DNA from: Saccostrea echinata
Lineage: Eukaryota
Direction: 5' to 3'
Assembly (NCBI RefSeq): GCF_033153115.1
Contig: NW_026889757.1
Coordinates: 2,294,001 to 2,358,000 of the forward strand
DNA: 64,000 nt
Below are positions 23,601-64,000 of this stretch, one piece after another; position 1 is the first letter of the stretch, and every line of letters begins with the position of its first letter. Under the pieces are notes generated by a model. The model did no database searches. It saw only the letters and a program-made list of their open reading frames with translations, and was not told the DNA's origin. Both the position numbers and the translations under genes were made by a program.

Positions 23601-26600
23601 AAGATTGCTCAGGACATTGACGTGGATCAGCTCGAGTCCTCCTTCAGCACACTTGGCCCTAAATATATGAAGAAGAAAACGGACACAGCCCCATCACCTG
23701 GACCGTAAGTTTCTACATTTATCTTCACGTGACTCAGTGTTATTTAACATGATCTGGAAAATTGAGTGATCTGCTCTTGTTTATTAAAATAATTATTGCT
23801 ATAATTTATGTGAATGGTGGATATACACATAGAAGTTATAGATGATTTCTCAACAAGACGACATAATTTACAAATTTTTGTTGAAGTTTGAATTTAATTC
23901 ACAAAATGAATTTGAATTTTTTTTTTACATTTCTGTAAGAAACTATCTTCTCCCCCCTAAACAGTTTGGGATTTCTTTGGTGTTAATTTGCAATAAGATA
24001 CATGTATGGAAGTTGTGTATGATTTATAGATTAAATACAAAATTTATATAAAATGCTATATATTGTGATCAGAGAAAGTTCACAAATTATCCCCCTCCCA
24101 TTCAATTTTCTTTTAATCTCATAATACATATACATGTATAAGTAGTTTTTCATATATTTTTGTAATAATTTCATTCCTTCAAGTTTGCACAAATACTCCC
24201 CCATCTGTAGTGTTGGTAAACAAAACTGGCAACTTTTACTCATATGAAAATCTCCTTGTTTACTGTATACATGTACATTAATATATCTTATTATTTTGTA
24301 GGGCTGGTGATGTGATTGTCAAGAAGAAGAAAAAGAAGAAGAAGAAGGGTAGGTACATAGGTACCAAGAATGCTTGGAAAAAAATGAGGATGCTATTTAG
24401 TCCAGACTTAGAAAACATACTGGGCGTAGATCATGTTCATAGGATTAAATTATTCATATACAATTGTGCATGTAGGTAAGGAGAAAGTTTTGAATATATG
24501 GATTTTTTAAATGTCCAAATTATTAAGCTGTTTACTATTACGGAAATTCTCTAATATTTATCGCAGATTTTTGTTTTAAAATACAGTATACGTATTGGTT
24601 TCCGAAAATTACATTTGTGTTATGCTCCAAATTTTATTTATTTTTTTTTGTTGGTTATATTAATACTTTAGTAATGATAAAGATATACTTGAAAACCTAA
24701 ATTAGACTAATATATAATTATTCAGAATGCCATTTATGCATGATACATGCTAACAAAAAGGAAATTAACATAACTTAAGAAATGAATGTAATATTTTTTT
24801 CTTTGACCGAAGTATCAAAGAAAAATTTGGAAGTAGCGCATTGATGAAAACGTTTTCCGCCCAAATTTTTCTTTGATACTTCGGTCAAAGAAAAAAATAT
24901 TACTTTCATTTCTTATCATTTAATTATGATTTAAAAATAATAAAATGAAACTTTCTTTCACTTTAATATTTAATTTACGCATCAAAGACTGTGCGTAGGT
25001 ATACAACACAACAACGTTGCTGAAACTCAAAATGGCTGAATGTATAGATCTACGCGCATTGATGAAATTTTTCGTCCAAGTTTCTTTGATACATCGACCA
25101 AAGAAAAAATTATAAGATTTATATCTTCTCGTTTAATATTTATCTTTCAATGATGAATTTTACCTGAGAATGAATGACTGTCCAACATACAGGCCTACCT
25201 TAGTTAGGCTACCTAAATTTTCAGATGCATAGTAATACATAACGAAGAAACAACGTTCTCAAATATTGTCGTGTCATTACCAGCACTTGCTAACAATAAG
25301 TTTTAACACCAAAAAACTTAACTGTCGTGTTATTAATTTTTGTGATATCCCAATGGGTATATTTTCCCTGGTAAGCTGATATATCTTTAGGTTCGTAAAT
25401 GCAAAGGGAAACTACTCAAATATAACCCTAACAATTCTTTCTAGGTCACAGAAATTTTGGATTTCATTCGCGCATCTCTTCATCTGAATTTCAAACCGAA
25501 CAAATAAATACTATCACAACCTGTTCATGCATAACACAACATGCTGTAAAATCTATAAGAGTCGGTTGCCGACTGTTTAACATTGAAAGAATTCCGTCCT
25601 CGCTCAGTGTCGTTTTTCTCGTGCATTCATTTCCTAAGAATTTACAGATTAACGACATTTCCCCGCTTTGGTAGCATAAAAAACATTTCTTCACAGTTCT
25701 ATTGTTCATACCAGTTATCACAAAGACAAACATTTAACATACGTATGATGATTTCTTTCCTTCTTTTCCGCAACTGCATTGTTGTCATGCAGACGATCAT
25801 TTGTTTAGTAAAGGGGGATAATTCGAAAAGAAACAAAAGTAGAAAATAACTCAGGAACGTAACGGACAAGTTTTGAAATTCAGGAAAAGAGAGTAAAAGT
25901 ATTTCATTTTTCTTTCACAAAGTAATTTAGAAGCGGGAAATATACATGAAAAGCCAGCTAAAGTAGTTCCGGCTGCTAAGTGCAAGTGAACTCCAGATTT
26001 TATTGATGCAGTTATCAAAAGAATTTTTTATCCAATCAGAATCAATTATTTTATAGAAATTAAATGATAATAAGAACCATTCACATCTAAGTTATCTACT
26101 GTACATTAGAAAATTAAAATAATGTTTTGCCAACAATGAATTAGGGACGAACAGTTCAAATTACAGAGATAAAACATTTAATTACTGAAAACTGCTGAAT
26201 AGGGTAAACAGCTCTGAAATTAATGTATATATGAATGTGGTATACACAAGTATATGTATGTTACAGAAGAATCAAACACAGTCAAATTACTCAATATGTT
26301 AGATAATGATTTAACCTTTATTGCATTTGTTTAAAACTTCCACATTTCTTCATATTATCATACTGTAATTTGCTATTTCAAGCAAGAAAAACTGCAAACA
26401 TATCCCTAATAATGATACTGACTATAATGAATATATAGAATGTATATAAAACAAGATATAAAAATTTAACAGGTAAAATGCCTAAGAATCCTGATGCTGA
26501 GATAGACCCAGAAAGATGGCTGCCTAGGAAGGAGAGATCGTATTATAGAGGAAAGAGAAGGGACAAACGCAAGGAAATTGGTAATGTAGCCTATAGAGAA

Positions 26601-27031
26601 TTCTGTTGTGTTCTTTGTTTCAAAAATATTGATTTGGAGTGTTCTTTGGATATTATATGTGTTTGTCTCATCATTATCTTTTTCTGCTTAGGTAAAGGTC
26701 CACAAGGTGCCACCAGTGGAATTACTGACAGTCTGTAAGTATAAACTGTATCTGAATTTCATCATCAACACTAACAGTGTTAATTGGAGTACAACAAGAT
26801 TTATACTTCTTCAAGGATGTAGATTGACTAGTATATCTAATCTCACTGATTTACAGGGATGCCAGTAAGACCCCTGGAAGTGACTCAAGCTCACCAAAAC
26901 CGAGCACTGCCACCACAACTAGCCCCACCACCGCCCCATCCCCGGCCCCAGCTGCTCAGGGCCCCCGCCAACAGAAACCAGCCCAAGCACAGAAACGGAA
27001 AAAGAAGGGGGGCAAGGGAGGAAAGTGGTGA
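13963..27031 (+). CDS. SRP72: Signal recognition particle subunit SRP72 (667 aa, 20 exons)
   Basis: Exons 13963-14074, 18695-18812, 18980-19100, 19189-19254, 19393-19470, 19965-20076, 20220-20295, 20499-20579, 20736-20793, 20897-21028, 21504-21632, 21860-21997, 22562-22657, 22760-22863, 23133-23210, 23573-23704, 24302-24348, 26473-26580, 26692-26734, 26857-27031 (2004 nt, all phases consistent). Motifs: FEKAYCEYRLN, YELCYNMAC, NKDQNVFDSKKK, poly-Lys then DPERWLPRKERSYY (SRP RNA-binding), GKGPQGA, C-terminal KKKGGKGGKW. AATAAA at 27144-27149. Confidence 0.96.
14335..17092. mobile_element. Non-autonomous hAT-like DNA transposon with 5-bp TSD, interrupted by a HINE
   Basis: TIRs CAGGGTTTCAAACTAAC / GTTAATTTCAAACCCTG; direct repeat CAAAT at 14330-14334 and 17093-17097; subterminal motifs CGCCATGTGGGC and TGCGAGTGGGC shared with the element at 29838-30494. 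Confidence 0.75.
14477..16195 (-). mobile_element. HINE with ~9 tandem 157-173 bp units (SRP72 intron 1)
   Basis: Termini are the reverse complement of those of 6894-9043 (TTTAGCTCACCTGAGCAGAAGGCTCAAGTGAGC ... CTCAGGTGAGCGATGTAGCCCATGGGCCTCTTGTT); short (GTCT/GTCC)n tract; units marked by GAAGCATCCTCAGGTAGTGTAGATTC. Confidence 0.88.
23211..23572 (+). other. U12-type (minor spliceosome) GT-AG intron, SRP72 intron 15
   Basis: Donor GTATCCTT; branch site TTTCCTTAAC at 23553-23562, about 10 nt before the AG; no long polypyrimidine tract; reading frame preserved across the junction. Confidence 0.92.
24776..26070. mobile_element. Non-autonomous element with a long terminal hairpin (Crypton-like) in SRP72 intron 17
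   Basis: ~55-bp near-perfect stem 24776-24830 / 24861-24915; TTATCATTTAATT (24913-24925) is inverted at the far end as AATTAAATGATAA (26058-26070); partial internal copy of the stem arm ~25055-25125; CpG-rich relative to the host intron. Confidence 0.55.
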
Positions 27032-31034: not shown

Positions 31035-33506
31035 CTATGATAACTCCAAAACTTTATGCTTTCCATAAACAACGAATATGGACCCTACGTTTTCAACCAG
31101 CACTCGAGGACGATAAAACAGCTGCACATGTGGTACAATCAGCTGTTTGAGTTCTCCCTCAGGAGAGAGTTTATGGATGTTGTTAGATTTGTACCCAGCG
31201 ACATAAATATTGCCATCCCTGTCGGTGGCAATGCCCCTCGGAAACGTCAACTCCGGATGGTCGTACTGGAACACGATTGCCCCAGCATTGGTAATGCAAT
31301 AAAATGAACCGTTGTTGCAGGAATCGGAGTAATATATCCGGTTTTGATCCGCTGGATGAACGGTTTGAACTTTCTCTCCAGTCACATGAAGTATTGATTT
31401 TCTTTTCATTGTTAGATCGTCTTCAACTATCCAAATCTCCAAATGTTTTAAGCAAGCCACAATGACAATGTTTCCAACGTTGGTGATGCCATAACATTCA
31501 TGCTTCGTCAAGTGGAGCTGTTGAAAAACTACAGCATTGTCCCACTGAAGGAGCACTATCTTTCGCTGTTGTGGAAAGGTTATTACCAGAGAGTAGCCAT
31601 CTCGGTCAGTAGGAACTTCTACAAGATCCCAAGGATTCCCTTGTAAATGGTGAATATTGAGCGAGTTATCACGATTTCCATTGTCATAGTAGGCCCGAAT
31701 TTCGCGGCTGATATAGTCAGCCAAGACCAAGCGCCCTTCGATTACTGTGGCACCGGTGATTGTGCTACTCTGAAACCTAATGACAAGAAATCCTTGTTTT
31801 AACTTCATGTGAAGAGCTTCCGACCTAGGTGTTGGCTGAGGAGATTGTAGTTCCAGTTTTCTCCAACTACCAGAGCCTGGTACGTACGGAACTTCTGGTT
31901 TGATCTTGGTGTGCATTTCGACAACGCTCCCCATGGAATCCAGTTGAACGATGATGTCATTAAATTCAACGTGAATTGAACTATTTTGCATGATTAATGT
32001 TCTGTGGTGCATTTTCTCTGCTAAAATGTTAGACTGCTGTCCTATACCTGGCAGCTCAATAAATAATTGCACCCCTATTCCTTCGTTCAGTAATAGCTCA
32101 AGCAGACTCTGGTAAAATAAAAGCGTTTCTCTCTTCTTCTCAAAGATTCCGATCTCAGTTTGAATTTCGAACTCTTTCTCTTTCTGTTTCAGAGTCAACT
32201 CATCCATTAGTTTCTTTTCCAAATTATTGAAATGGTTTGAAACTCTCATCCTCAAGGCTGTGATAGCATCCTCATCGTTTTTGCGATAACTTAACAGATC
32301 GGATAGATTTTCGCCTAGTTTGTCTAGCATGTCCACAGATTTCTTTTCCAAATCTTGCAGTTTATCTTTTAATTCTTGTGCGTATTCGCTCTTTCGAAGT
32401 TCCTCTGCTTCAGAATCGGCAGTGACCAAACCCGGACATTCACGATGATAGTTTTTCCTGCATGTGTCACAAACCGCGACATCATGGTCCTCACAGTAAA
32501 ACTTAAGTTTCTGAAGAGAGTGAACTTCACAGAATCCTGGCGAGTACGCTGAATCGACGTCGTTGGAAACGTCCTTGATGCTTCTAACTCGGTGAACATC
32601 ACGTGAGGTCAGGTTGTTGTGGTAGGCAGCATGATCATTACAGAGGGACTCCGTGCAAAAATAACACCAGAATTCTGATGTTGTCGTTTTTCCATCTTTT
32701 GCGCAGGGAATGCACTTCTTTATATTCCTTCTAGCGACAATATTCAAAATAAAGTGATTGGTCGGCAGTAAATGAGCGACTTCTTTAGGAGGAACAGTTG
32801 ATCTTCTTCCAGGTTGAAATTCTTTACAAACTGGGCAGCGGATACGAAACGATTTTGCATTTCCTTGACTTTTCCGGAAGTAATCCCCAATGCAACTTTC
32901 ACAAAACGTATGCAAACATGGAAGATACTTTGGTATGGAAAACTCCTTTTTGCAAATCGGACAGATTGTTATGTCTCCATCATACTTATAAATGTCTTCC
33001 TCGCTCTCTGGAAGATACTGACGGTAGTTTCGCTCTGGTTGAGGCGGGCGAATTTTTGCACTAATTTGCTCCTTGTCCTTCTTAATTTGTTTCTTATCCT
33101 CTCTCATTTGGGTGTCACCGGTGTTTGAGTCTCCATTCCCTTTATCTATACCTACATCAAGCACTGTTTGGTTGCCGTTGGGTTTTAATATGTTGTTACT
33201 CTTTTCAGATGCATTGTTACTCAGCTTTAAGGACAGTTTAGATCCAATTTTTTCCTCGGGTTTCAGAGACTTTTCCGAGTCATTCCCCTTTTCAGACTTC
33301 GTGTTACTCAACGTTGATTTATTTCGTCCATCTTCTTTCTTCTTGCCCACACTGGGTAAAGTCAACTCTTGTAACCCAGCATTTGATTTAGGTCCATCGT
33401 CTTGACCGTGTTGACTTTCTTTTTCTCGATCAAAAGACCCTTCTCCTTTGATGACTTGATCTGGCGGTTTGGAATCTTGGACCTCAACGCTGACCGTACC
33501 AGACAT
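31035..33506 (-). CDS. Intronless tripartite-motif E3 ubiquitin ligase (RING, two B-boxes, coiled coil, NHL-like beta-propeller; 823 aa)
   Basis: Single ORF with first ATG at 33506. RING CPIC..PCLHTFCESC..CPVC; B-box CIPC..WCYFCTESLCNDH..H..H; B-box CEVH..YCEDHDVAVCDTC..HREC; heptad-rich segment; C-terminal repeats such as FPRGIATDRDGNIYVAGYKSNNIHKLSPEG. Confidence 0.9.
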   Translation of the reverse strand: MSGTVSVEVQDSKPPDQVIKGEGSFDREKESQHGQDDGPKSNAGLQELTLPSVGKKKEDGRNKSTLSNTKSEKGNDSEKSLKPEEKIGSKLSLKLSNNASEKSNNILKPNGNQTVLDVGIDKGNGDSNTGDTQMREDKKQIKKDKEQISAKIRPPQPERNYRQYLPESEEDIYKYDGDITICPICKKEFSIPKYLPCLHTFCESCIGDYFRKSQGNAKSFRIRCPVCKEFQPGRRSTVPPKEVAHLLPTNHFILNIVARRNIKKCIPCAKDGKTTTSEFWCYFCTESLCNDHAAYHNNLTSRDVHRVRSIKDVSNDVDSAYSPGFCEVHSLQKLKFYCEDHDVAVCDTCRKNYHRECPGLVTADSEAEELRKSEYAQELKDKLQDLEKKSVDMLDKLGENLSDLLSYRKNDEDAITALRMRVSNHFNNLEKKLMDELTLKQKEKEFEIQTEIGIFEKKRETLLFYQSLLELLLNEGIGVQLFIELPGIGQQSNILAEKMHHRTLIMQNSSIHVEFNDIIVQLDSMGSVVEMHTKIKPEVPYVPGSGSWRKLELQSPQPTPRSEALHMKLKQGFLVIRFQSSTITGATVIEGRLVLADYISREIRAYYDNGNRDNSLNIHHLQGNPWDLVEVPTDRDGYSLVITFPQQRKIVLLQWDNAVVFQQLHLTKHECYGITNVGNIVIVACLKHLEIWIVEDDLTMKRKSILHVTGEKVQTVHPADQNRIYYSDSCNNGSFYCITNAGAIVFQYDHPELTFPRGIATDRDGNIYVAGYKSNNIHKLSPEGELKQLIVPHVQLFYRPRVLVENVGSIFVVYGKHKVLELS

Positions 33507-34160
33507 AATCACTCCAGTCTATGATTTACGAGTGCGTGCAGCTTTCCACTACATCGAGAATGTTATTTCTTCAAAAAAAGTATCTTGTTACATAAGTATT
33601 GACGTACTATGGCATTTTTTGTTTCATGTACATAGAGAGAAAGATTTTAATGATAAAATATTATCTGTCGACAGAAGATACGAGAAAAACAAAGCCCTCT
33701 TTAAATTCAGCAGGTACTGCATTGTGAAATGATTGTATAGATGTCTATGTTGACAGGTCGAACAACCAGATCGTTTCTTAAATGTCTTATTATGATCGAC
33801 ATTTGGTCCTTTAGTTTTACCCATGATCTATACATGTACTTAAAAAAAAACACCACGAAATGTGCATTTAAAAGAATCGTTTTCCTATATGTTACTTGTT
33901 TAAGGATAAATAACACATTTTTTTTTCAGAAATCAGCAATAAATTAAATAGATTTTTTTTCTTTAAATAAGTTGTATAATGTTTGCCAGAGTAAGTCGAA
34001 ATTTTGTATAATGTTATAATAATTTTAATAATGTGCGGAAATATTTGTGTAGGTTTATAAAGAATATGGCACAAAGTTGCATATTTAAATACCAACGAAA
34101 ACTTACAATTTCATAATATTTTAGGGATTCATTATTCTAGTAATCTCTGTTCAAATCAGT

Positions 34161-35695: not shown

Positions 35696-38600
35696 CTAAG
35701 AGTCATTCAAATATTCCAAGAAACTCCCTATGGACGGAAGATCAACATCGCCTTTTTGATGCGTACCTCGTCTGTTTCGTGGATTTTCCACGATTTTCAT
35801 GTGAATAGAGGCCTCGATATCGTATTCCACTCTTTCGTCAGGACAAAATCTATGAGGCATGGCACAGGATGGCCCTGCAATGGTTGTGATAGCAATGTTA
35901 CTTGCATTTTGAAAAACTCCAAAATTACTCCCTTGAGGAGAGAAATGTGAATTTTGTTCGGATGCATTGCATCGGACGGAAAACTTGACTCCTCTATCCG
36001 GTTTCACGCATCCGTTCGAAAAATACTGGTTTTGCACATGACTTATAGGTAGATTATGGTAATTAGCAAATCCAGCACTATTTTGGCTTCTGTCGAACTG
36101 ATCTGGCAAGGTTTGCATTGGTTGATGAACACATGTTAAATTCGTTGGGTTGTGACCCTGTTGGGGATAAATATGTTGGTTGAAAGAATAATTTGCTACT
36201 TTTTGGGGAGAATATGGCGGCGAAGGAGGAAAATTATAAACGTTAACATTGGGTGGCCCAGCGGAATAATTTGGCGGCACTGCTGCATTCCATTGTTGCT
36301 GAGGGGTTTGTTCCATAGGGTTGAATAACATGCTGTTGGGGTAGTTCATCGTATGACCACAGGTTGTGTAAAAATTTTCCTGTGGTTCCGCCTTTATCAT
36401 TTGAGTTCCGTTACTGCATGGTTTAAAGGTCGTAAAAGAATCGACAGATGATGCAACATACTGCTGGCAAGAGTTTTGCACTGGGTTGTACATACTGTAC
36501 TCGGATTTTATCACAGTCTTCTCTATCTGTTGTCGTCGCTTGAATTCCTGAAACTGCAGTTGCTTTTCACGTTGTGTGATTTTGTGTGCAACATGCGTGG
36601 AGGGCAACACTGGGGAATGACGGTCTGACATCATATGCCAGCTTGATGGACAGGTTACCAGTGGTGTATAAAAAGAGAGTGACACGTCTTCAGTAAATCC
36701 CATATGTGGAGTGCAGAAGTTACTGACTTTCTGCATCCCATGAATGTCTTCATTGTGGTTTTCGGGGTCGGATCTATGGCCACCATTACTATAGTGGCCA
36801 TTTTGTAGAAAGAATTGAAGGTCGCCTATGGCGTATCGGTGACGAAGTGCTGTTTCTTGCTGTAAAAATGTACTGTCCTCCACTCTACAACAAGAAATAA
36901 ACACTTTATTAGAAAATAATTGTTTTTGATCTAAAAAAAAAAAAACATTAAAAAAGCATCCGTTTACCTGACGGGACAGTGCGTGAACACGATGGAAAAT
37001 TTCTTGGAATTTTTGCTGATGACCTTTCCCCTGCTGTGCAGCCAAACCCACTTCCCATTCCGAGTCTCGATGCGGAAGTACATCGTTTGTACCTCGGTGC
37101 TATCCATTACTGAAAGAATGGTTCTTATTAACACAAGTAATACATTAACATTATATTAGAATAAAAAAAATTACACTATCCTTACGTACATGTTTTGTGA
37201 CAAGCAGCAAAAGTCACAAGGTCTTCAGGGTGGACATATTTGTAGAGTGTGACCTCATTAAGTTCATCAGCGTTGTATCCAATTATGTCGGATGCTCTTT
37301 ATAGAATAAAAATAAAAACATTCCCAATCATTTTAATGTTTATTTATGAACAGGACATCGGGAATAATAAAACGATTGCAACTTGTGTAGAATCATCATA
37401 CTTCTTATCCAGTTCTCGAATGGTAAGGTCCATATCATGCTTACTCCAGAAGACATTTTGTTTGACGTCATTAGTGAGGTCGTTTCCGGTCAACATAAAT
37501 GGCTGACAGAAGAGCAGCATGATGTGAGGCTGGTTTCGACTATTTTTCAGTGAAAATTCCGGAATATCTTCAATTTTCCCAGAGCAGTGAATTTTCTTTA
37601 AGAAAGGAAAAACAATCATCCATTAGGCTACTGAAGGTTAAGAAAGATAGTAAAATCGACACTTTAGGGGTTCTGAAGGAATTTAGAAGATCTTACCAGG
37701 TAACCAGCAGAAGTACCATTAAAACACTTCATTCGACAAACAAATGATATATTCACAGTCTTTGACTGGAAATTATCTGAAATCTAATAATAAAACTTTA
37801 TTCATGATATTATACAGCACTGAGTTATTCTTGAAAGTTTCAGTTATTCCAGGGACCTATATAGTAGTATAATATATAGGTCCCTGGTTATTCTTTCTTG
37901 AAAAAAAATATTACCGGGTATGTGAATGTACATGTGAAGCGAGTATTTGAAATCGGCAATATAAAACACTTTATTCACCTGTGTAACGGAAGTGATGTGT
38001 CGCTCTAAAACATTTTTCATATTGTCGTGATCATCTGGATGTACAATGCCGTACAGACAACGATGCATCAAATCCACCTGAACGTATAAAAATTACTTAT
38101 ACGCATGAATAGCATGGAATTAAGAGATGGTAATGTTTTCTCTGGGATAAATTCATAGGAATTTTGCATCGTATTTGTTAAATTAAGTTATATATCAACG
38201 AGGGTATTCAATGTATGAAAATTATTTCATGAGTGGGTCAAGATTTTTATATATGTTCTACGAGTGCGAAGCACGAGTAAAAACATTTTTGAAAATTCAT
38301 ATTTCAGGAGTGAAATAATTTCATATCCAACCACAGAACATTGAATTTTCTTGGTTTTTTTTTACTCCTACCTTTTCGTATTTTATCATAAGATATGACG
38401 TCATAACAGCGGTTGTGAGACGCAATATTTAGCTATTGAAATAGGCCCTAATTACAACAATTTGGACAAACTTTGGCAGTTTTATCTGTGTTAGGATGGT
38501 TTATTTACCTTTACATCTTATAACGGGAAGTGTGTTCTGTATAGCACTCTTTATGAAGGGCTGGAAATCTCAAGTTTTGCCGCACTTTTGATATTTCTAT

Positions 38601-41600
38601 TTCCACAGTGAATAAATATCACTTTTAATGTTTTAACGTTTAATGTTAATCTTTTATTCAGTGCACAGGTTAAACTATTTTACCATTCAAAATAATAAAT
38701 GCCTTTACTCCATCATAAGAGCGGAGAATCTAGTAAATATTTTTTAAGATATATTAAGATCGAATATAAATATTTCCAGCAAAGGCGACAGGTATACAGA
38801 GAAATAACATAAATTGAAATTAACCACTATGCAACATTTTTTTTATCGCTAGATATAAAAAAGAGACTACTTTTGGTTAAGAAAATTCTTAAGAAGAGAC
38901 CCCGCTTTCTGTTTGTTTTTGATTTTTAGCACCTTATCTTTCATAATATTTTTTCAATGCATTCCTCACTCTGGCTGTTCAGTACATGTTTGATATTAAT
39001 TAAATCAGATAAATTACATAAGACTTACCTGATTAAATCCTAGATACTGTAGGACATTATCTGAAGCATATAACAGAGTCCCATCAGTTGACGCGGCCAG
39101 AACAAAACCATCAAGTATCTGAAAATAATCTCGGAAATAAATATTCTATACTTTGTTCTAATTTTACATACGACTATAGCATTTCCGATGTAAATAAAGA
39201 TGGTCTATGCGTTTGTTATCCACACACTTCTGCCTGGGCCGTGTCGTGTCCTTTATCATAATGTTTATGGACAGGATATTACATACACTGAAGAAAATGA
39301 TGATACAACTCACAAGAATAGGAGAAGGAACGATATTCAATTGATAGCTAACGAGGTAAACAATATAAATACACGTGCCCCTCCCCCTTTCTGGTGCAAA
39401 GAAAAATGGATTGTACCTTCACTATGAACAGATGATGAAGAGTCTACAATTAGGTTTTGCTGTTGTTCATTTTTAATGAATAATTATCATTTATACTATT
39501 GACATATGTACAAACAAGTACTAATGATTATTAACTAAATATTAAATGATTTAGGTTCACTCAGAGTACCAGTTTCGAAAGGCCGTTCTATCACGGACTG
39601 TAGAGGATGATATTCAACGCATGGGAAACGACGACACACTCCCCGACTTTGAGTTTGGCTGTGTTAGACTCCCGGAGGGTAATCCTTTCTCAGTAGAGAG
39701 AATCGCTCTCTGGTTAGGAGCAGGAAACACTGGATTTACACTTGTGTGTGAAAAATCGGAAAACAGACTTCTTGCAGAAAACGTTTTGAAAATTCTTATA
39801 AGGTTTATTCAGGAGCATGTACGAGTTTTGAATCAACCCTCGGAAGCGAGACTGAAGAGTGACAAAATTGCCCTTATTCTCAATCGGTTTTTGCCAAACG
39901 GGAACCTGCTTTTTATGAACCATCGTGTTGTCAGACAATTAGAAAAAGATGTTGAAAGTTTGATGAAGTTATCATGAATTTATTATCTAATCTGAGTTGT
40001 TAGATAGTATTTCAAATCTATATATTTCATTAAACGGGTTGTTTGAAAAATAAGTGTGTAAACTTGATATCCAATAAGTTCACCATGGTAATTTTTTTTT
40101 AATATACCCAGCCACTTAAGTTTTCAGTGTAAAAAGAAACTGTTAATTTGACATCTTAGTTTTGATTTTTATAAATAAAAAAAATAGATATATTGATATA
40201 TTGCATATACCTGAAATATATTTCTGCCACAGAAGAATTCTTCCACAACCTGATGTCTTTCTTCATTACCGCCTAGTTCCCCATTTTGTAGTGAAGGGGT
40301 GATTTTTTCGTATGCTGTTAAAATGTATACAAATACATATGAAAATTATTTCACTTAACATAATGATGTTGATAAACTATGAATGAACTTATTTCACCTT
40401 ATATGCATTTGCAACTTTATATTCTTTTTGATTCTGAAAAAATACGGAGTTATAGAGGGAGAAAATGCCGTGTTCAAACTGATTTCTGTTTGAAATTGTC
40501 ACCATGCTTCCTCATCACAAATTATCTTATAAACTGAACTGTAGTTCTCTATAGTCATTCAATAATATATCAAATTTGTCACAACTTTTATGTTTATGTA
40601 ATTTTTCCTTTGTTTCAAGATTTAAATTTAATTTAGAAGGTCATGGAACACAAGAATATTTTTATAGCTTAAATGTAAGAATAATTAATGAGAACATCTG
40701 CTTATCGACCATGTGCTTATACCATTTAAATCCTGTGTACAGTCTAGAAATTGATTTTTTCAAGAACCCTTTTAAGTTTGCTATACTGGGAAAAGATATG
40801 TTTTGCAAAATATTTCTTTGTTTAGTGGAAACTTTTTCATTATGCAGCGCGAGGTTATTCTGGATCAGTTAGACACGTGAGAAGTAAACGGAAGATTTAT
40901 ATTTCAAGTTTTGGTAAATATCTTTTCTCAGTTCAAAGAAAACAATTGTTTGAAGCAAAATAGAAGATGGAGTACGGCTTGAAAAGTTCGAAGAATTGCA
41001 CTGCAAATAATACCCGAATCAGACACAAATTGATCAATAAATTCCTATAAAGCTCTGCTATTTAATTTATGAAAAACAAGGCACAATATTTGATAAAGGA
41101 GATTAGGAACTGTGCTTAGATTTTGGACAAACTGCTTGGAGTGTTGGACAAACATTTCAACATTAAAATACCCCAAGCTTCTTCCCTATCGTTCATCGCA
41201 GGTTGTTGAGGGGTGCGAATTCCCCGTTCCGGAACCGGTCGTCCCGTGCCTGACCGCGGTGGTTTGTAGACGCGCCGTGATGCTGTCATCAGGTGATAGC
41301 GTCACCGATAAATTTCCCCGTCAATAGAGTTAAAGTGGAATTGAAAACTGTTTAGCCATCTAAGACAGACGACACTTCTTGGTGTCTTGTCGTGTCATCC
41401 AGTCATAAATGGTCAACGGGACGACGGCACCTCACTGTGCGATATCCTCGTAAAGTATTCAATCTTTAGATAGCATAATTTACATTACTATAACTTTCAA
41501 TAATATGTTTCATCCATAAAGAAAACTAAGTATATTAATTAATTGCTGAAATCAATTGAAGACATAATGCAAGACCCCTCAAATTTTTTTATATCTCTGT

Positions 41601-44600
41601 ACGATTCATTGGGTACCGGTATCAAAGACGCCCATCCTTCCCCCTTTTTACCAAATGAACGAAAACTAAAAATATACAATGTACTTGGGTAAATAGGCTA
41701 AGGAAGATGAATGAGGCTACAGAAATGACTGTCATACTTGGCTCTTTCTGTGGGTACCCAGGAGTCTTTAATGAGTCAGCGCCCCTCGATTAGAGTGTAT
41801 GTGACTAGTAATCCTGAAGTTGTCTGGGTGTGTCAGCTGCCATAATGACCGATCAGTCTGGCATTAACTGCCCTTATTTGATTTGTGTATTTACAAATCC
41901 AATTCAAGTGGGTTTCCCTGGATTATTTATTTAACCATTCAGCGGTTTACAGAATTTGATAGCGAAAATTTAAACAAATATTTTAAAATATGTTTAGTTA
42001 TTGCTCATTCTTACGAGAAGATGCATGTTTTGTACGAAGTACAAATGTACTTCTATGAAACCGAATTCCTCTCCAGATTCAGAGCAACAAAGAAAAATAT
42101 CCTTTCCCCCCATTTTTTGAAAAAGGGAAAGGACCATTCTCAACAGAGTAAGAGCTAGAAAATAATGAAATACTTTGAGATGACTCTTTTATTTCGATGA
42201 ATTTACCTTTCAATTTGAAAAAGAATGTTTTGAGGAGTATTAATAGTTCTGCTTTTCCTTTTTTTATTTAGGAAAAATCTTCATTTTTATCAAACGTATT
42301 TTACCGGTATATTCCCGAATACATGTCAATTTTAATGTTAAATAAAGAATGAAATGTTTTAAAATATGGTATATTCATAATAAATTCTTGTACGTGTGTG
42401 ATAGTTCATCCATTAACAGTATACCTCGTGGCAGTAAACACCGTATGTATTATGACGAGGTAGTAAATACAGTACTAGGATGAGGCAGTAAAATAGCATT
42501 TATAAGATTTGATTGTCAGTAAATACAGTATTTACCAAGACAAGTCAGTAAATACAGTATTTACCAAGACAAGTCAGTAAATACAGTATTTACTAAGACA
42601 CGTCAGTAAATACAGTATTTACCAAGACAAGTCAGTAAATACAGTATTTACCAAGACAAGTCAGTAAATACAGTATATACTAAGATGTGGTTGGTAGTAA
42701 ATATAGTAGTTACTAGGGTGAGACAATAAATACAGGATTAACTAAGATGAAGCAGTAAAGAAATTAAAGGCCAGGCTTTTTGACATCATAACTGTTTTTT
42801 GAATAAAAATGAAGTTCGCAAATTTAAAACTTACCTTGTCGTTTGTTTAAACAATATGAGCTGCAACTTTTGAGGTCGGAAATTTTTGTTGCAAAATTGT
42901 AATTACTAATTCAGTGGCAGAAACAAAGAACGTTTATAAACTTCTGTTGTTCATTTCTGCGATGGAAGAACTATTTATAAGCTTTGATGGAAGCAAAATT
43001 ACGTTATAGTCGTCATGTACGTTATTGATTTTACATTCCATTGTACAGAATTTTTTCTTCTGAAACAATATAATACTTTATTTTAGTCTAATTGATCATG
43101 AAGGTTAAAATTACATCAAAACAGCACATTTTAAAGCAAAATAAAATTCTCAAAAATGCAGCTCATATTGCTTAAAAAAAAACACCCCTGATTGTATACA
43201 CAAGTACTCGTACATGTACTCTGAAGTTGATATTAAAAAGATGCATGCTTTAGTTTCTGATAGACAATATCTATGTAGTCTTTCAACAATCTGTTGGGTT
43301 TCCCATGAAATACCAATTGCGCCCCGTTATAAGCAGACCTATTTTTGTATTCATATGAAGCAGAATTTATTAAAATAAATAAATAAATAAATTAAAAGAT
43401 TCAAAAAGTAACTAGCTGTGGCCTTCAATATATCACATTTTGAGATATCGACGACGTTTTATCAATTAACAATATTTATTTTCATTCTTACGTTGATTCG
43501 ATATATCCCTTTAAACTCGAAAAAAGACACCACAGAGTCTGACACATCTGTTTCGTATTTCGCTATTTTATTAGAGAAAGACATTAATGACAAACACACA
43601 ACAAAACTTTATGATAAACGTGATAACTTCAACTTTTCGATCGACAACTTCCCTTATTCATGTAGCAATATACCATTCTCACCTACATATGGAGTTTATG
43701 TCTCCCAGTTAATTTGATACGCAAGAGCATGTTCTACGTACGAACAATTTCTAAAACGAGGCAAGCTATTGATAAATAAGTTGATGGTACAAGGATATCA
43801 AGAGTCTCGTTTAAAGTCAACATTTCGCAAATTATATATATATATGATACAATGATCTTCTTAGCAAATACATGTACAATCTATGGTTAAGTCGAATGTT
43901 GACTGACGTTTTACATACAAATTGGTAGACCAATATTTTCATCATTTGACTACATATTTTTCCGTTTGCCCGATCATGACAAGGAGCACACGGCGGGTTT
44001 CTGTGACCGGTCAACAGGGGATTTTTATTCCTCCATGGCACCTGATCCCACCTCTGATGTTTTTAGAGGTCTGCTGTGCTCCAATTTGTATTGTTCAGGT
44101 GGACTTTTGAGCTTGATTGTTACTTGTGATCTTTATATTTCATACAGTACGTATGACGATGAGGCAGTACAGTAAATACAGTACCTACTGAGATGAAGTG
44201 TTCAATAATTATAGGACAGAATAAGAGTTATATACATGTACAAACCTTTAAAAAGGAGTTTTATTCTAAGAAAGGAGATGACAAGACGAAAAACTGTCTG
44301 GCTGTCTAACTTCCGGTGAAGTGACGATCTGTCTACGGGTATCAAACACTCTAGAGCCTTGATTTCTGTTCTCAGTTTGTCCCGGTAGCGCTTGGATTTA
44401 AAACTACAATAATCAAACCAAAATTATGTTTTATATTATATGCTTATATATGATGACATGATAAATATTTATGCGTACATCATCCTATTTTTAAACCGTT
44501 CATCTCGCGAGTATCTGTCCATTTCATAATTGCAATGCAAATATTAAGTGTTTATGTACAATATTGAGAGGAATTGTGCATCTAAGGAATATTTTAGTTG

Positions 44601-59542: not shown

Positions 59543-62500
59543 ATGAAGATCCACGTTTTGTGTCTGTTTCTTTTGCTGGGTCTTACGACCACATCTTCAG
59601 TAAGTTTTTATCTATATTTTTCCCCGTTGCAAAAAAAATCTTTACAGCTTTCTCTTTTCATTTCAATCTACATGCGTAGATACAATTTACAAACGGTTCT
59701 GCTTATTACAGGAGAAAACGGTGTACAAGGTCACCACGATTCTTGTAAGTACTATCAATTTATGTCGTATGTGTACTCTGTTTTTCTTATTAATTATTGT
59801 GGGAAAACTGCTATATGACTACATATATTCATTATGTATCGTGCAGCGTAGCAATAAAATGAAATGCAAATGGATGTGTGTTTAAATTGCCCTATGTCTC
59901 CGTTGCTTTACCTTGTAATATACCTTTTTTAGTTGGGACATGAGGGGGATATCGTATACCATGAAATTATTTACACTTCATAACAATATCTAAATACATT
60001 TAAATGAAGTCACGGGATGAATGATCATGATTCCCAAATCAGAGATTTAAAAGTTGACAAAGAACCGAAGCATGCAAATTCGAGAATTCAGTGTAGAGTT
60101 CTGGTTTAAACTAGCCATTTTATCATAAATGCCAGTGGCGGATTTAAGGGGGGCGCACCCGGCGCGCACCCCCTAAAATTGTCAAATTTAGCATAAATCA
60201 TAGTTTCGTCGAGAAAATGTAAAAATGTCTACTTGGTAGACCTCATTTTTACCCTACAAAATCTCTAGAATCCAGAAGCTTCCGGGGGCTTCGCCCCCCT
60301 GGATCCCCACCAGGGCTTTGCCCTGGACCTACCGGGGGGCTCAAGGCGGCCCCAGACCCCCTGCCTACTTTTTGCGGCCCCTCTAACTTCAATTCCTGGA
60401 TCCGCGCCTGAGTGCGCAAAATTTAAACTTATGTCATATGCATATGATTTATTATAGTGATTCAAACTCCTACAGTAAACCTATCTGCATTCTTTACAAT
60501 GCTTCATACGAAGGTATAGCATACCATACAGAAGGATATGCTTACAATCTACGCGTGATCTATGCCCATTGCTAGCATTTACACGTGATTTCTCGTGGTA
60601 TATACCTGATAACATTGGATATTCACATAAATTAGCATGATCCTTCTTAATGGTGCTCGTGACTGTACACTGTAAAATATTTAAAACGTTGAGATTTTGT
60701 TTTGTCAATTCTGCATTATTTACTCAAAGCACGAACCACATGGGGTTATACTTAACCACTCATATACTATAAAATACATTTCATAGTAAAGGTGGTCAAA
60801 AAGAAAAATGGGCCGTGACTAGCTTATAGCCCCTGTACACTAACCGGAAGAAAAACAACAAGGAAATATATGCTTTCTTTTCATATCTAATTTTACCGCT
60901 ACAAGCGTTTGCGCTTATAAACTTTGTTGTTATATAAGGTTGCGTGGTAGTGCTCCTGAATATAATTAATCAACTTACAAAGAAAATGACAAAGGCCGCA
61001 GAACCTTCTTTATTTTTTAAGACATCACAGCAATAATATGGTAACTTTCATTATTTTCAGAATAAACCTTTTGTAACTCAAAAGGTTGGAAATCCTTCAG
61101 AATTCCAAGGCCTTATACCCGATTTGTTGAAGAGGATAGAACCAATTATTAATGTAACCTTTGACATTAAACATGTAGGAGATTTCAAGTACGGCTATCA
61201 GGATAGGGATGGGAACTGGACTGGTATGATAGGAGAACTTGTAAAAGGGGTAGGATTTCAGTTTACATTATATTTACCTGGTTGGTTGCGTCTCTTTGAG
61301 AATATTTCACTCATGTTGGGACGCCACCAGTTGCTGGTGTGAAGAATCTCTTTTTTTATGGCAACATCTACTGCAATTCGGGACCTCGGTTTATAACTTC
61401 TCATCCAGGTACCCTTATCCGAACAACCGGTGTCCATTTTCCACCAGCAGTTGGATTTGAACCCACAGTTCAATTCCTTACTCCGAGACACACACACACA
61501 TGTTTCTTACAAGTTTGAATGTTTCCTAGCTCTCTAATTGGCTGAAAACATTAATTTATGTGCACTCGGCCTTCCAGGTGAATTTCACATTTATTTTTTG
61601 TACATTGTAATAAAAGTAGATCCGGAACTTCCAAATTGATACGATTGGTTATGTATATTTTTTGTCGTCTCCTGTCTCTCACTGCGTTTCACTAAGATTT
61701 CAGCAGACGTAACCAACCAAGAAAGATGACGTTGTTTGCTTTTAAAAAGAGTTTTTATCAATTAATAATTGAATCCAATTTAAAACAATTATATACTCCT
61801 TTTTGGTCAATAAAATCATCAAATAACTTTGGATATATAACTTTCATTAAACAATAATTTTATAGATATTGCTCTGACAAGAGTTGGGAAGCAAAAGGGC
61901 GAAGCAAAAAGGGTTCATACTTTTCATTGTAGGTAGCAGATATTGCTGCAGCGTCCATTACCGTGACAGCAGAGCGAGCAACCGCCATCGACTTTTCGCA
62001 TCCCTTCATGGAATCGGGAATTTCCATTGTTCTTAAGCGCCCTATTGCGAGGGGGTGGCAGGCTATAAAGGGTTATGTCTCCTTTCTAGAGCCATTTACC
62101 GTCGGAGTTTGGATCGCCTTGCTCTTCTCCTGTTTAATCATTCCCATTCTGTACGGATTGATTATGCAGTAAGTAAAAGGGCGCGAGTGTCACAACCAGA
62201 AACATCACTTTGATATTCCTAAACATGGAATTGCATGTAACATGTGTCATTGTTTTGGTCTTGTCAACTCATATCTATTTACGATTTTTTTGTTGTTGTT
62301 GCCAGTTTTGACCCTATGGAAGATGAAGCTGAAACTTCTTTTCTGAAGAATATTGCCCGAGCAGTTCCTGTTGTCTTCTACAGATTTTGCTTACAAGGTT
62401 AAATTTCACGGTGTATAGTAGTTACAAATCTGTAGCTCGCTGGTCTGAAAAAAAAAATAGTAAGGACGAACAGAGAGCTACAGCGCCACACATTTAAAAA

Positions 62501-64000
62501 GTGTACTATATTTATTGCGCACAAAAAGTGCACTGTTTCTCGATTTATTTCTCCGTTTGTAGCAAAATATTACCAACCGTGTGTTCCTAATATATTCTTT
62601 CACTAATTCCACACTAAGTATTAGTCATGTACGAAGTACGTTGGACCGAACTGTCTTGCCACCCAAAATGGCACTATAGGTAGGCGAAATATTTCAGGCC
62701 CTGGTGGGCTATTAACAACGGTTTTGGCAAATGTTTTATTGTGGAAGTAGTGAAAAAATATATTTGGAACACACGGTTTGTAATATTTTGAGATGGCAGT
62801 TTAATTATACGGAGAAATAAATTGAGAAACAACGCACTTTTTTGTGCGCAATAAATATACACTTTTTTTCAATGGGTGGCACTGTAGCTCTCTGGTCGTC
62901 AATCCCAATTTTTTTTTTCAGACCAACGAGCTACAGATCTGCAGCTAATATCCACCAAACTAGTTAAAAAAGACATTTTAGCGTTCTTCGACTCATTTAA
63001 GTTTTCAGATTTAAGCTTGATTGAATTAGTTTATCTGTATATCTGGATAGTTTTCTTCAAAGTTATCACAGATGCACATACTCCTACGCCACTACTACCA
63101 TACTCCGCTTCACTGAACATACAACGCTTTTACGTACTTTTATGTTTAGCACACTTAATTTGTATTAGTCAATGAATTAATTATCATCATCTTCTCTCTA
63201 CTAGAGAGTTTTAACACAGCAGCTTAATTAAATTATTTCTGATCATCTCATATTGAGTTGTAATATCCTGGAATACAAATGTATATGTTTAAATGGGTTG
63301 AATTAAAACTGCAGGTGTATTTTAAACAGTATAAATTCAACTGGTTAGAATAATTCTTTTATGTGGTAAATAAAGGACTTTACTGATACATACTAAATTA
63401 GATATGTATGCCAATATTGTAGGAAGTCTTGCGCCATCCAAATCTACCTCCAGGGCTGCGAGAGTTGTACTTGCCTTTTGGTCTTTGTTTCTAATCATTT
63501 TGTATGCCACCTGGGCATCAGCCTTTGCTGTATTCATCATGGAAGGAAAACGACAACTTCCGGAATCTCCCCTCCATTCATTTTCCGAGCTATCGAAACA
63601 AACTTCTGTGAAATTTGGAACAGTTAAAGCAGGATCCACTTATAGATACTTCACAAACGCCTTGGATGAGGTGGATAGCCAAATTGGACAACATTTGAAA
63701 AACAATCCAGATCAACTGGTCAAAAGTACAGAAGATGGAATTAAACGAGTTCGAAACAGCAACGGCGATTATGCGTTTATAACAGAAGAAATAGGAGCTA
63801 GGCTAATTGCAGGACAATTGCCGTGTGATCTAATGCTAATTCACCATTCTTTTATACGTAAGTCGTTTTCTTTCGGATGTGCCAAAAACACTAGCACATG
63901 CAGAAATCTAGATATCGCCATCATTAAGCTGAAGACAGATGGAGTGATTCAAGAACTAATAGATAAATGGCTGAATGAGGACGACGTCTGTGACACAGAT
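59543..64000 (+). CDS. Ionotropic glutamate receptor-like protein lacking the amino-terminal domain (3' end beyond the window)
   Basis: Exons 59543-59599 (signal peptide MKIHVLCLFLLLGLTTTSS), 59712-59744 (EKTVYKVTTIL), 61061-61249 (NKPFV..KYG..GNWTGMIGELVKG), 61933-62168 (VADIAAASITVTAERATAIDFSHPFMESGISIV..FLEPFTVGVW, M1), 62306-62397 (M2), 63423->64000 (M3, S2: KFGTVKAGST, EDGIKRVR, YAFITE, PCDL, IKLKTDGVIQELIDKW). All GT-AG and in frame. Confidence 0.9.
60133..60410. mobile_element. GC-rich hAT-like MITE in iGluR intron 2
   Basis: Ends CAGTGGCGGATTTAAGGGG / TTCCTGGATCCGCGCCTG; internal hairpin GGGGGCTTCGCCCCC; no TSD seen. Confidence 0.65.
61281..61488 (-). mobile_element. Truncated, decayed copy of the 30583-type SINE
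   Basis: GAGAATATTTCACTCAT (tail), GGACCTCGGTTTATA..TCTCATCC (Deu-like core), GGATTTGAACCC..TCCTTACTCCG (B box and variable arm). Confidence 0.7.
62419..62947. mobile_element. Long-TIR MITE related to the 6467-9364 element, in iGluR intron 5
   Basis: ~190-bp imperfect inverted arms; the right terminus reads TAGCTGCAGATCTGTAGCTC on the minus strand, and both elements contain CAGAGAGCTACAG. Confidence 0.75.

Follow-up and report, generated by a model that had tools for sequence, protein, structure and literature searches.

Gene structure and transcripts

The end of the analysed stretch of Saccostrea echinata DNA (64,000 nucleotides, hereafter the window) carries a plus-strand gene, whose spliced product is a 479-aa ionotropic glutamate receptor (iGluR) subunit without the amino-terminal domain (ATD). 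Its features are as follows.

59428..59542, + strand: transcribed 5′ leader, minimum extent (contig starts 59428, 59475 and 59484)
Within the 5′ leader, + strand: 10-codon upstream open reading frame, ATG at 59480 (sequence)
59506..59512, + strand: TATTTAA, probably not a TATA box (inside contigs of three of four runs; 29 window copies)
59543..59599, + strand: coding exon 1, predicted signal peptide of 19 codons, phase-0 donor (hydropathy; joint in four of four runs)
59712..59744, + strand: microexon of 11 codons, first strand of S1 (both joints in four of four runs; GluA2 alignment; strand at residues 22-28)
61061..61249, + strand: exon 3, S1 (PF10613; joints)
61933..62168, + strand: exon 4, end of S1 with T103 and R108 (GluA2 T480 and R485), and M1 (joints; alignment)
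62306..62397, + strand: exon 5, M2 and pore loop, Q202 at the Q/R site (joints; alignment)
63423..64000, + strand: exon 6, M3 with degenerate gate, S2 with G273-S274-T275 and E324, and M4 (joints; alignment); it runs 186 nt beyond the window end, to 5186 of fetched locus L001
L001 5504 onward, + strand: last coding exon, 22-aa tail end (a loose contig end matches it)

The first coding exon (57 nt) has a hydrophobic core and is followed by a 112-nt GT-AG intron in phase 0 (59600-59711). The microexon spans 33 nt, and all 11 of its codons read EKTVYKVTTIL; the VYKVTTIL quoted in the initial annotation corresponds to its last eight. The joints 59599>59712 and 59744>61061 and three later ones, each GT..AG, were seen in assembled RNA contigs from all four runs, which represent at most three samples from two studies and bear no tissue label. 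These contigs join the leader exon through the microexon to all exons, with no ATD exons spliced on, and confirm the in-phase passage from leader exon across the 112-bp intron to the microexon, first read from the genome. The contigs were mapped from 59400 onward, and splicing further upstream is judged by their ends. The colinear contigs with the starts listed above, from three of the four runs, cover an in-frame TGA (59528-59530) upstream of the ATG, and because this stop lies within them, these transcripts are unable to encode an upstream ATD. The TATTTAA, initially read as TATA-like, does lie at 59506, but inside the contigs of three runs and as one of 29 plus-strand copies in the window; although contigs cannot show the start site, it is unlikely to be a TATA box.

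The claim that no ATD exons lie upstream was also upheld by profile search. The profile, made from 63 ATD segments, gave no match at E≤1 across the 64 kb, and it did match 11 of 32 fetched loci at E<1e-3. In the 479-aa subunit (P0001), PF10613, PF00497 and PF00060 score above cut-off, so that the S1/S2 and channel families are present without ANF_receptor, which was found in five ATD-bearing relatives and a kainate-type control. Moreover, the comparison with other bivalves yielded orthologues of 479-485 aa in oysters and mussels (Saccostrea cucullata, 87%; Magallana gigas, 70%; Mytilus, 48-50%). The missing domain, and nothing else, would favour reading the gene as a pseudogene or truncated model derived from an ATD-bearing receptor. 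We rejected this explanation as vanishingly improbable: the spliced contigs with their upstream in-frame stop refute it for the contigs seen, the orthologues are intact across oysters and mussels, and the profile found the window free of ATD exons. The transcripts thereby prove that such short receptors are whole proteins and not truncated models.

How might the ATD have been lost? As the initial annotation stated, the microexon encodes the first strand of S1: it aligns with GluA2 ‘KTVVVTTIL’, and the modelled strand (residues 22-28) has a pLDDT of about 92. The same microexon occurs in two distant paralogues in the same genome. An intron follows S1 strand 1 at one common position in 19 of the 21 iGluR loci of S. 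echinata; the exon preceding it is 30-33 nt long in three short genes, and in the other 16 loci the search for phase-0 acceptors of the top-scoring exon gave none below 84 nt. The microexon thus looks like the 3′ stub of an ancestral last ATD exon. Early in the group, the ATD exons would have been dropped, and a new phase-0 acceptor would have arisen 10-11 codons before the ancestral donor after S1 strand 1. The exon comparison in this way suggests a probable route of ATD loss. A family-alignment search for longer relatives gave five matches, none close, which is weak evidence. Among the paralogues, L009 as assembled here is without its second S1 exon and M1-M2, and L007 has two candidate leader exons, neither identified with confidence.

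Binding site, gate and tail

The subunit has the S1-M1-M2-M3-S2-M4 layout of the iGluR superfamily, matches GluA2 in phmmer (E 1e-55), and its predicted model matches the ligand-binding domain (LBD) plus transmembrane domain (TMD) chains of AMPA receptors. The fold search gave rmsd values of 11-15 Å because the LBD–TMD angle differs, and it therefore adds little. Predicted cleavage leaves about three residues before S1. The binding residues Y450, T480, R485, G653, S654, T655 and E705 (GluA2 numbering) are retained, while P478 is replaced by Ser and Y732 by Phe, substitutions that could shift the ligand preference.

The M3 gate matches SYTANLAAF at two of nine positions, with Val at the lurcher position and Trp in place of Tyr, and M2 carries an Arg. 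In the tree described below, every one of the 30 wider-group rows scores 1-6 for this motif, and the 18 others all score 7-9. M1-M3 is 94% identical within Saccostrea, and this strong conservation is compatible with a working pore. Between oyster genera, the tail is 93-96% identical, as compared to 67-76% for S1/S2. The conserved pore region would suit a homomeric channel with unusual (leak or slow) gating, in which the changed M3 and the M2 Arg alter gating or selectivity. Engineered ATD-deleted receptors can assemble. There is also a placozoan AKDF receptor that has been described as constitutively open (PMC12226733). However, the gate motif varies freely in the family (1-6 of 9), which resembles relaxed constraint more than a new shared gate, and a homomer of this kind seems to us improbable.

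Placement in trees and two names in print

The main tree comprises 48 rows and 412 columns (LG+C20), the rows hand-picked from 77 with several long branches left out; beforehand, 73 of 222 proteins had been dropped as partial, multi-hit or redundant. The S. echinata gene falls outside the AMPA (99/97) and kainate (100/99) clades and within a 10-row mollusc clade (95/86), together with Patella P0022 and an octopus cluster holding XP_014783750.1. A 12-row mollusc clade has support of 95 on the LBD alone too. A 24-row clade (91/96) includes crinoid and hemichordate rows, which are Phi-like by position, none being accession-matched to a named GluF. On the whole protein, a 30-row clade unites the vertebrate kainate-binding proteins (KBPs), the Phi-like and the mollusc short proteins (96/97); it is absent from the LBD-only tree.

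Grouping with IR25-like genes was rejected on the whole protein (p-AU 0.0075) and allowed on the LBD alone (0.53); the IR25 labels of L017 and L026 come from motifs compared by eye, and rows P0121 and P0177 do not group with these two. Grouping with the deuterostome Phi-like proteins was allowed on the LBD alone (p-AU 0.63), and a joint clade with ATD-less hemichordate relatives was not rejected (0.118). The whole-protein tree favours Phi, and the LBD alone cannot tell Phi, IR25 and KBP apart. The deep placement hangs on the transmembrane columns, so shared gate decay may pull rows together.

The 30-row clade would be expected if the gene were a true orthologue of the vertebrate KBPs, descended from a single ancient ATD loss. 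Against this, the LBD alone does not return that clade, a single clade of all 25 ATD-less rows was rejected (p-AU 0.0012), as was an exclusive grouping of the KBPs with the S. echinata group (0.033), and a KBP plus kainate clade was not rejected (0.22). We consider such orthology highly unlikely. The likeness to KBPs is probably convergent, as initially suggested; the whole protein agrees with this view, whereas the LBD alone does not reject the exclusive grouping (p-AU 0.52).

The mollusc short-receptor group has been published as IR-A (PMC12837371, PMC11682238) and, separately, as GluF/Phi (PMC8437780). The octopus protein XP_014783750.1 is GluFIV_Obi in the supplement of PMC8437780, and Aplysia XP_005107294.2, which is GluFI_Aca, pairs with an S. 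echinata paralogue (100/99). The IR-A link consists of motif matches by eye, the published IR-A sequences lying outside the tree: the M1-M2 loop motif of Patella P0022 recurs in CchIR-A.1, BarIR-A.5 and A.7. In addition, the M. gigas orthologue accession stands, unlabelled, in the reference list of PMC12837371, and the 479-aa ATD-less protein lies within the length range of published IR-A proteins (436-540 aa). Judged from its sequence, the gene very probably belongs to this molluscan IR-A/GluF (Phi) group. The initial annotation was therefore right about an ATD-less subunit with an AMPA/kainate-like LBD and wrong about an undescribed class; the gene does fall, in name, within a described ATD-less IR clade, IR-A being a putative IR clade. 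Nor is it a bivalve-only oddity, as cephalopods, gastropods, a chiton, a brachiopod, nemerteans, an annelid and hemichordates have short relatives as well. As a member of its described group, the S. echinata gene is unremarkable, and related oysters already have it annotated. The iGluRs counted in a survey of C. gigas were all 794-1224 aa long (PMC10642201).

The missing ATD is mentioned nowhere in PMC8437780, and neither an equation of IR-A with GluF nor an ATD-less molluscan GluF was found in the openly readable text, figures excluded and without Andouche 2021 and Moroz 2021. Our analysis links the two literature names to one protein set. We tentatively propose, as a less probable extension, that IR-A and molluscan GluF form one lineage not derived from IR25: an ancient ATD-less, gate-degenerate Phi branch, to which a single exon-block loss (leader exon, new acceptor, microexon) gave rise before the diversification of molluscs and perhaps, because hemichordates have ATD-less relatives, even before the protostome/deuterostome split. 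If true, the lineage would represent a class of naturally minimal glutamate sensors spread across bilaterians, a parallel to the vertebrate KBPs.

Proposed function and comparison with known systems

On balance we favour a transcribed 479-aa ATD-less subunit of the IR-A/GluF (Phi) group that, by prediction, acts as a glutamate-binding partner and not as a stand-alone channel; most likely, it is a glutamate-sensing, non-gating or modulatory subunit. The partner mechanism itself is held with more reserve, a little short of an even chance. The subunit would form a heteromer with an ATD-bearing, normal-gate subunit (IR25-, kainate- or AMPA-type) and thereby reach the membrane. There, it would lend glutamate or acidic amino-acid sensitivity to the heteromer and tune or dampen conduction, and traffic control or binding to a partner inside the cell would fall to the conserved tail. 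A functional study of any group member was not found in the literature searched.

The alternative is a KBP-like role as an abundant, non-conducting glutamate binder, which would either buffer or scavenge glutamate or relay a signal by way of its tail and would need no channel partner. To our knowledge, KBPs alone give no currents. The same architecture, the decayed gate (KBP rows 3-5 of 9) and the conserved tail agree with this role, as do the nearest ESM Atlas clusters by features, which are chordate ‘glutamate receptor U1’ (0.98). Scallop GluF expression is likewise high and broad, being reported as ubiquitous (PMC8437780, section 2.3), and a narrow sensory role therefore fits poorly. In contrast, the subunit still has Gln at the Q/R site and each of its four membrane segments, and PMC12837371 reports gastropod IR-A genes as enriched in sensory organs (antenna and lip). 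We regard the KBP-like role as unlikely, if somewhat less so than the homomeric channel. With its intact glutamate site, missing ATD and decayed gate, the predicted partner subunit offers a test of the need for the ATD in assembly, and it bears on the claims that GluF genes explain bivalve domoic-acid tolerance.

The AMPA, kainate, delta and NMDA classes have an ATD of about 400 aa and the SYTANLAAF gate, and the S. echinata gene is without both. Arthropod tuning IRs act with ATD-bearing co-receptors and, like this subunit, have no canonical ATD. They nevertheless carry about 200 residues before S1 (PMC2924276), as compared to the few left here after predicted cleavage. The vertebrate KBPs (glutamate receptor U1) share the missing ATD, the length of about 480 aa, the retained binding residues and the decayed gate; however, identity is 28-33%, their leader is longer (S1 proline at 53-59 versus 33), and on the whole protein they form no exclusive clade with the S. 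echinata group.

Deuterostome Phi shares the relaxed SYTANLAAF motif (Ramos-Vicente et al. 2018, PMC6307864). Of the 14 GluF listed there, 10 carry 331-422 aa in the N-terminal region, and GluF_Pfl has 472 aa with a 50-aa ‘ATD’; Phi is reported to have no Gln at the Q/R site, where the S. echinata gene has Gln. IR-A (a name from Andouche et al. 2021, used in PMC11682238 and PMC12837371) is alike in its length of about 440-540 aa, its missing ATD and, in several published sequences, a leader running straight into S1. Its gastropod members (Patella, Haliotis) keep six of nine gate positions rather than two, and the whole-protein tree sets the S. echinata gene apart from IR25-like genes. Finally, the species table of Zeng et al. 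(2021, PMC8437780) gives GluF subclass III for oyster, mussels, pearl oyster, arks and scallops; the two mytilids in it have only GluF I and III. By elimination from this table, the S. echinata gene is probably GluFIII, GluFIII_Cgi (CGI_10003728) being unmatched to the orthologue. In the tree it nests with the GluFIV_Obi cluster, near GluFI_Aca, and while scallop GluFIII is predicted to bind glycine, the S. echinata gene has G653/T655, the glutamate pattern.

Gene structure and transcripts

The iGluR gene lies on the plus strand, and its 5′ part, comprising the first six coding exons, is inside the window with an open frame and GT-AG borders at all introns. We completed it from L001, the genome stretch continuing past the window, and obtained a 479-aa protein already in the database for this genome (P0001).

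Coding exons of the iGluR gene and ordinary neighbouring genes (window coordinates unless stated)
59543-59599, plus: iGluR exon 1
59712-59744, plus: iGluR exon 2 (microexon)
61061-61249, plus: iGluR exon 3
61933-62168, plus: iGluR exon 4
62306-62397, plus: iGluR exon 5
63423 onward, ending at L001 5186, plus: iGluR exon 6, completed from L001
From L001 5504, plus: iGluR last exon
31035-33518, minus: TRIM-like intronless ORF (RING/B-box/beta-propeller, 827 aa)
23110-26738, plus: SRP72 exons
5361-5648, minus: Ras-family exon

All five exon joints within the window were seen in transcript contigs from four of four runs (at most three samples, two studies); the RNA type is presumed, yet every intron is skipped exactly. 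A loose contig end matches the last exon. Three contigs, starting at 59428, 59475 and 59484, run colinearly into the ATG and contain an in-frame stop at 59528-59530, and the ATD is therefore absent from these transcripts. A profile of 63 ATD segments detected no ATD coding sequence in the window; the same profile matched 11 of 32 fetched loci at E<1e-3. The initial annotation, in which a signal peptide is spliced straight to the LBD of an ATD-less iGluR, is thus confirmed apart from its TATA box: the word TATTTAA lies inside the transcribed contigs and has 29 copies in the window. Its TAA is the stop of a 10-codon upstream ORF (59480-59512, plus strand), in frame with the main ATG and contained in two contigs, which could dampen translation.

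In intron 5, an inverted-repeat-like element (62440-62600 and 62760-62950), probably a small mobile element, draws many unrelated contigs, and depth is high near L001 3800-3950. An AhR-like (bHLH-PAS) gene (35696-44423, minus strand) is arranged head to head with the iGluR gene; its bHLH-like exon near 44300 and PAS-A-like exon near 39100 were identified by eye alone. The intron between them holds an AP-5 complex sigma-1 exon (39555-39977, plus strand; PF15001, E 1e-51), a nested antisense gene.

Relatives and phylogenetic placement

The closest named protein to P0001 is from Saccostrea cucullata (87%), followed by Magallana gigas XP_011439037 (70%) and Mytilus (48-50%), all of 479-485 aa. Proteins of 450-520 aa with the leader running straight into S1 also occur in scallops, freshwater mussels, Solemya, octopuses, Patella, Haliotis and a chiton, and, outside molluscs, in Lingula, nemerteans, Owenia and two hemichordates. 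The ATD-less architecture is therefore widespread, and not the bivalve novelty first supposed. Further short ATD-less iGluRs (479-512 aa; P0060, P0084, P0094, P0100, P0047 and P0176, one of them nemertean) fall outside the mollusc clade and suggest that the ATD may have been lost more than once. The predicted protein P0039 of Lineus longissimus (989 aa) carries two ATD-less receptor units in tandem, which may be a genuine concatemer or two adjacent genes fused in the model.

In the main tree (S1 to M4, 48 rows, 412 columns, LG+C20), the gene grouped with M. gigas (100/99) and then Mytilus (100/100), within a 10-row mollusc clade that adds the octopus GluFIV cluster, Patella and Haliotis (95/86). 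Crinoid and hemichordate proteins join at a 24-row node (91/96), KBPs at a 30-row node (96/97), and AMPA and kainate receptors at a 39-row node (100/99), while the S. echinata IR25-like genes stay outside. The row labels IR25, NMDA and delta-like are presumptive, based on sequence motifs. In AU tests on S1-M4, whose values are weakened because several groups were chosen after inspection of a first tree, grouping with the IR25-like genes (AU 0.0075) and a single clade of all 25 ATD-less rows (0.0012) were rejected, the gene group plus KBPs alone was weakly rejected (0.033), and neither KBP plus kainate (0.22) nor grouping with two ATD-less hemichordate proteins (0.118) was rejected.

With the LBD only (246 columns), a 12-row mollusc clade is retained (95), the deeper nodes all lack resolution, and none of the groupings with IR25, KBP or Phi is rejected (AU 0.53, 0.52 and 0.63). 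The M3 gate, scored as matches to SYTANLAAF, reaches 1-6 of 9 in all 30 wide-group rows and 7-9 in all 18 others; shared decay may therefore drive the deeper nodes.

Probable origin of the microexon and published names

One intron, located two codons ahead of the first proline in S1, occupies the same position in 19 of 21 S. echinata iGluR loci, and is therefore ancestral. In the other genes, the preceding exon usually begins with the last ATD hairpin; phase-0 acceptors lie 84-147 nt upstream in 8 of 16, with none nearer for the top-scoring exon. The exon before this intron measures 33 nt in our gene and 30 nt in each of the distant paralogues L007 and L009; L009, which pairs with Aplysia GluFI, has a predicted 19-codon phase-0 leader exon 283 nt upstream. 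From this pattern we infer that the microexon is likely the 3′ stub of an ancestral exon that began with the last ATD hairpin, and that ATD loss likely predates the split of the GluF subclasses. The kainate-like gene L012 has a second candidate S1-strand-1 exon (about 4210-4245, 12 codons), 241 nt downstream of the usual 108-nt exon, which could permit an alternative form or one that lacks the ATD; tandem copies of this kind of exon end also occur in L016.

How does the gene relate to named groups? Gastropod "IR-A" proteins have 436-540 aa (PMC12837371, Table 2), and the supplement sequences go from leader to S1. Compared by eye, three of these have the same characteristic loop motif as Patella P0022, and another matches Aplysia P0161. 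The reference list of that paper includes, without labels, the orthologue from M. gigas together with one scallop relative and two from octopuses. Independently, molluscan Phi was named "GluF", subclasses I-IV (PMC8437780); its supplement gives XP_014783750.1 as GluFIV_Obi and XP_005107294.2 as GluFI_Aca; in our row set these correspond to P0219, from the P0021 cluster, and to P0161. These accession and motif matches suggest that the proteins called IR-A and those called GluF in molluscs are one and the same. A single lophotrochozoan Phi clade has been reported (PMC12226733), and published tree figures may already show this identity and placement. By elimination from the species table of PMC8437780, our gene is probably GluFIII. 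It is a real, conserved, ATD-less subunit of an already known group.

Protein features and proposed function

By hydropathy, residues 1-19 of P0001 resemble a signal peptide. The microexon aligns to GluA2 at the first S1 strand, and the structural model also has a strand there (pLDDT about 92; whole model mean 78, pTM 0.58, 22 sequences). Pfam finds the S1/S2 and channel families, and ANF_receptor is absent. In GluA2 numbering derived from our alignments, Y450, T480, R485, G653, S654, T655 and E705 are conserved, with Ser in place of P478 and Phe in place of Y732. Under the rule that G653 with T655 specifies glutamate (PMC6307864, PMC8437780), the predicted ligand is glutamate. The long-branch paralogue L007 has Lys and Trp at 653 and 655, and is therefore probably no glutamate binder. 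The Q/R site is Gln, and the M3 gate scores 2/9, with the conserved Tyr replaced by Trp and the lurcher alanine by Val. The 27-aa tail is 93-96% identical across oyster genera, as compared to 67-76% for S1 and S2.

Gastropod IR-A is enriched in antenna and lip (PMC12837371), and bivalve tentacles contain IR-A transcripts (PMC11682238); in contrast, scallop GluF expression is described as ubiquitous (PMC8437780). Because the binding site is intact, the assembly domain missing, the gate decayed and the tail conserved, a ligand-sensing subunit that assembles with a partner bearing an ATD would fit best. Failing that, P0001 might be a non-conducting binder like the KBPs. For the preferred partner subunit, the analogy would be with tuning IRs, which join an ATD-bearing partner.
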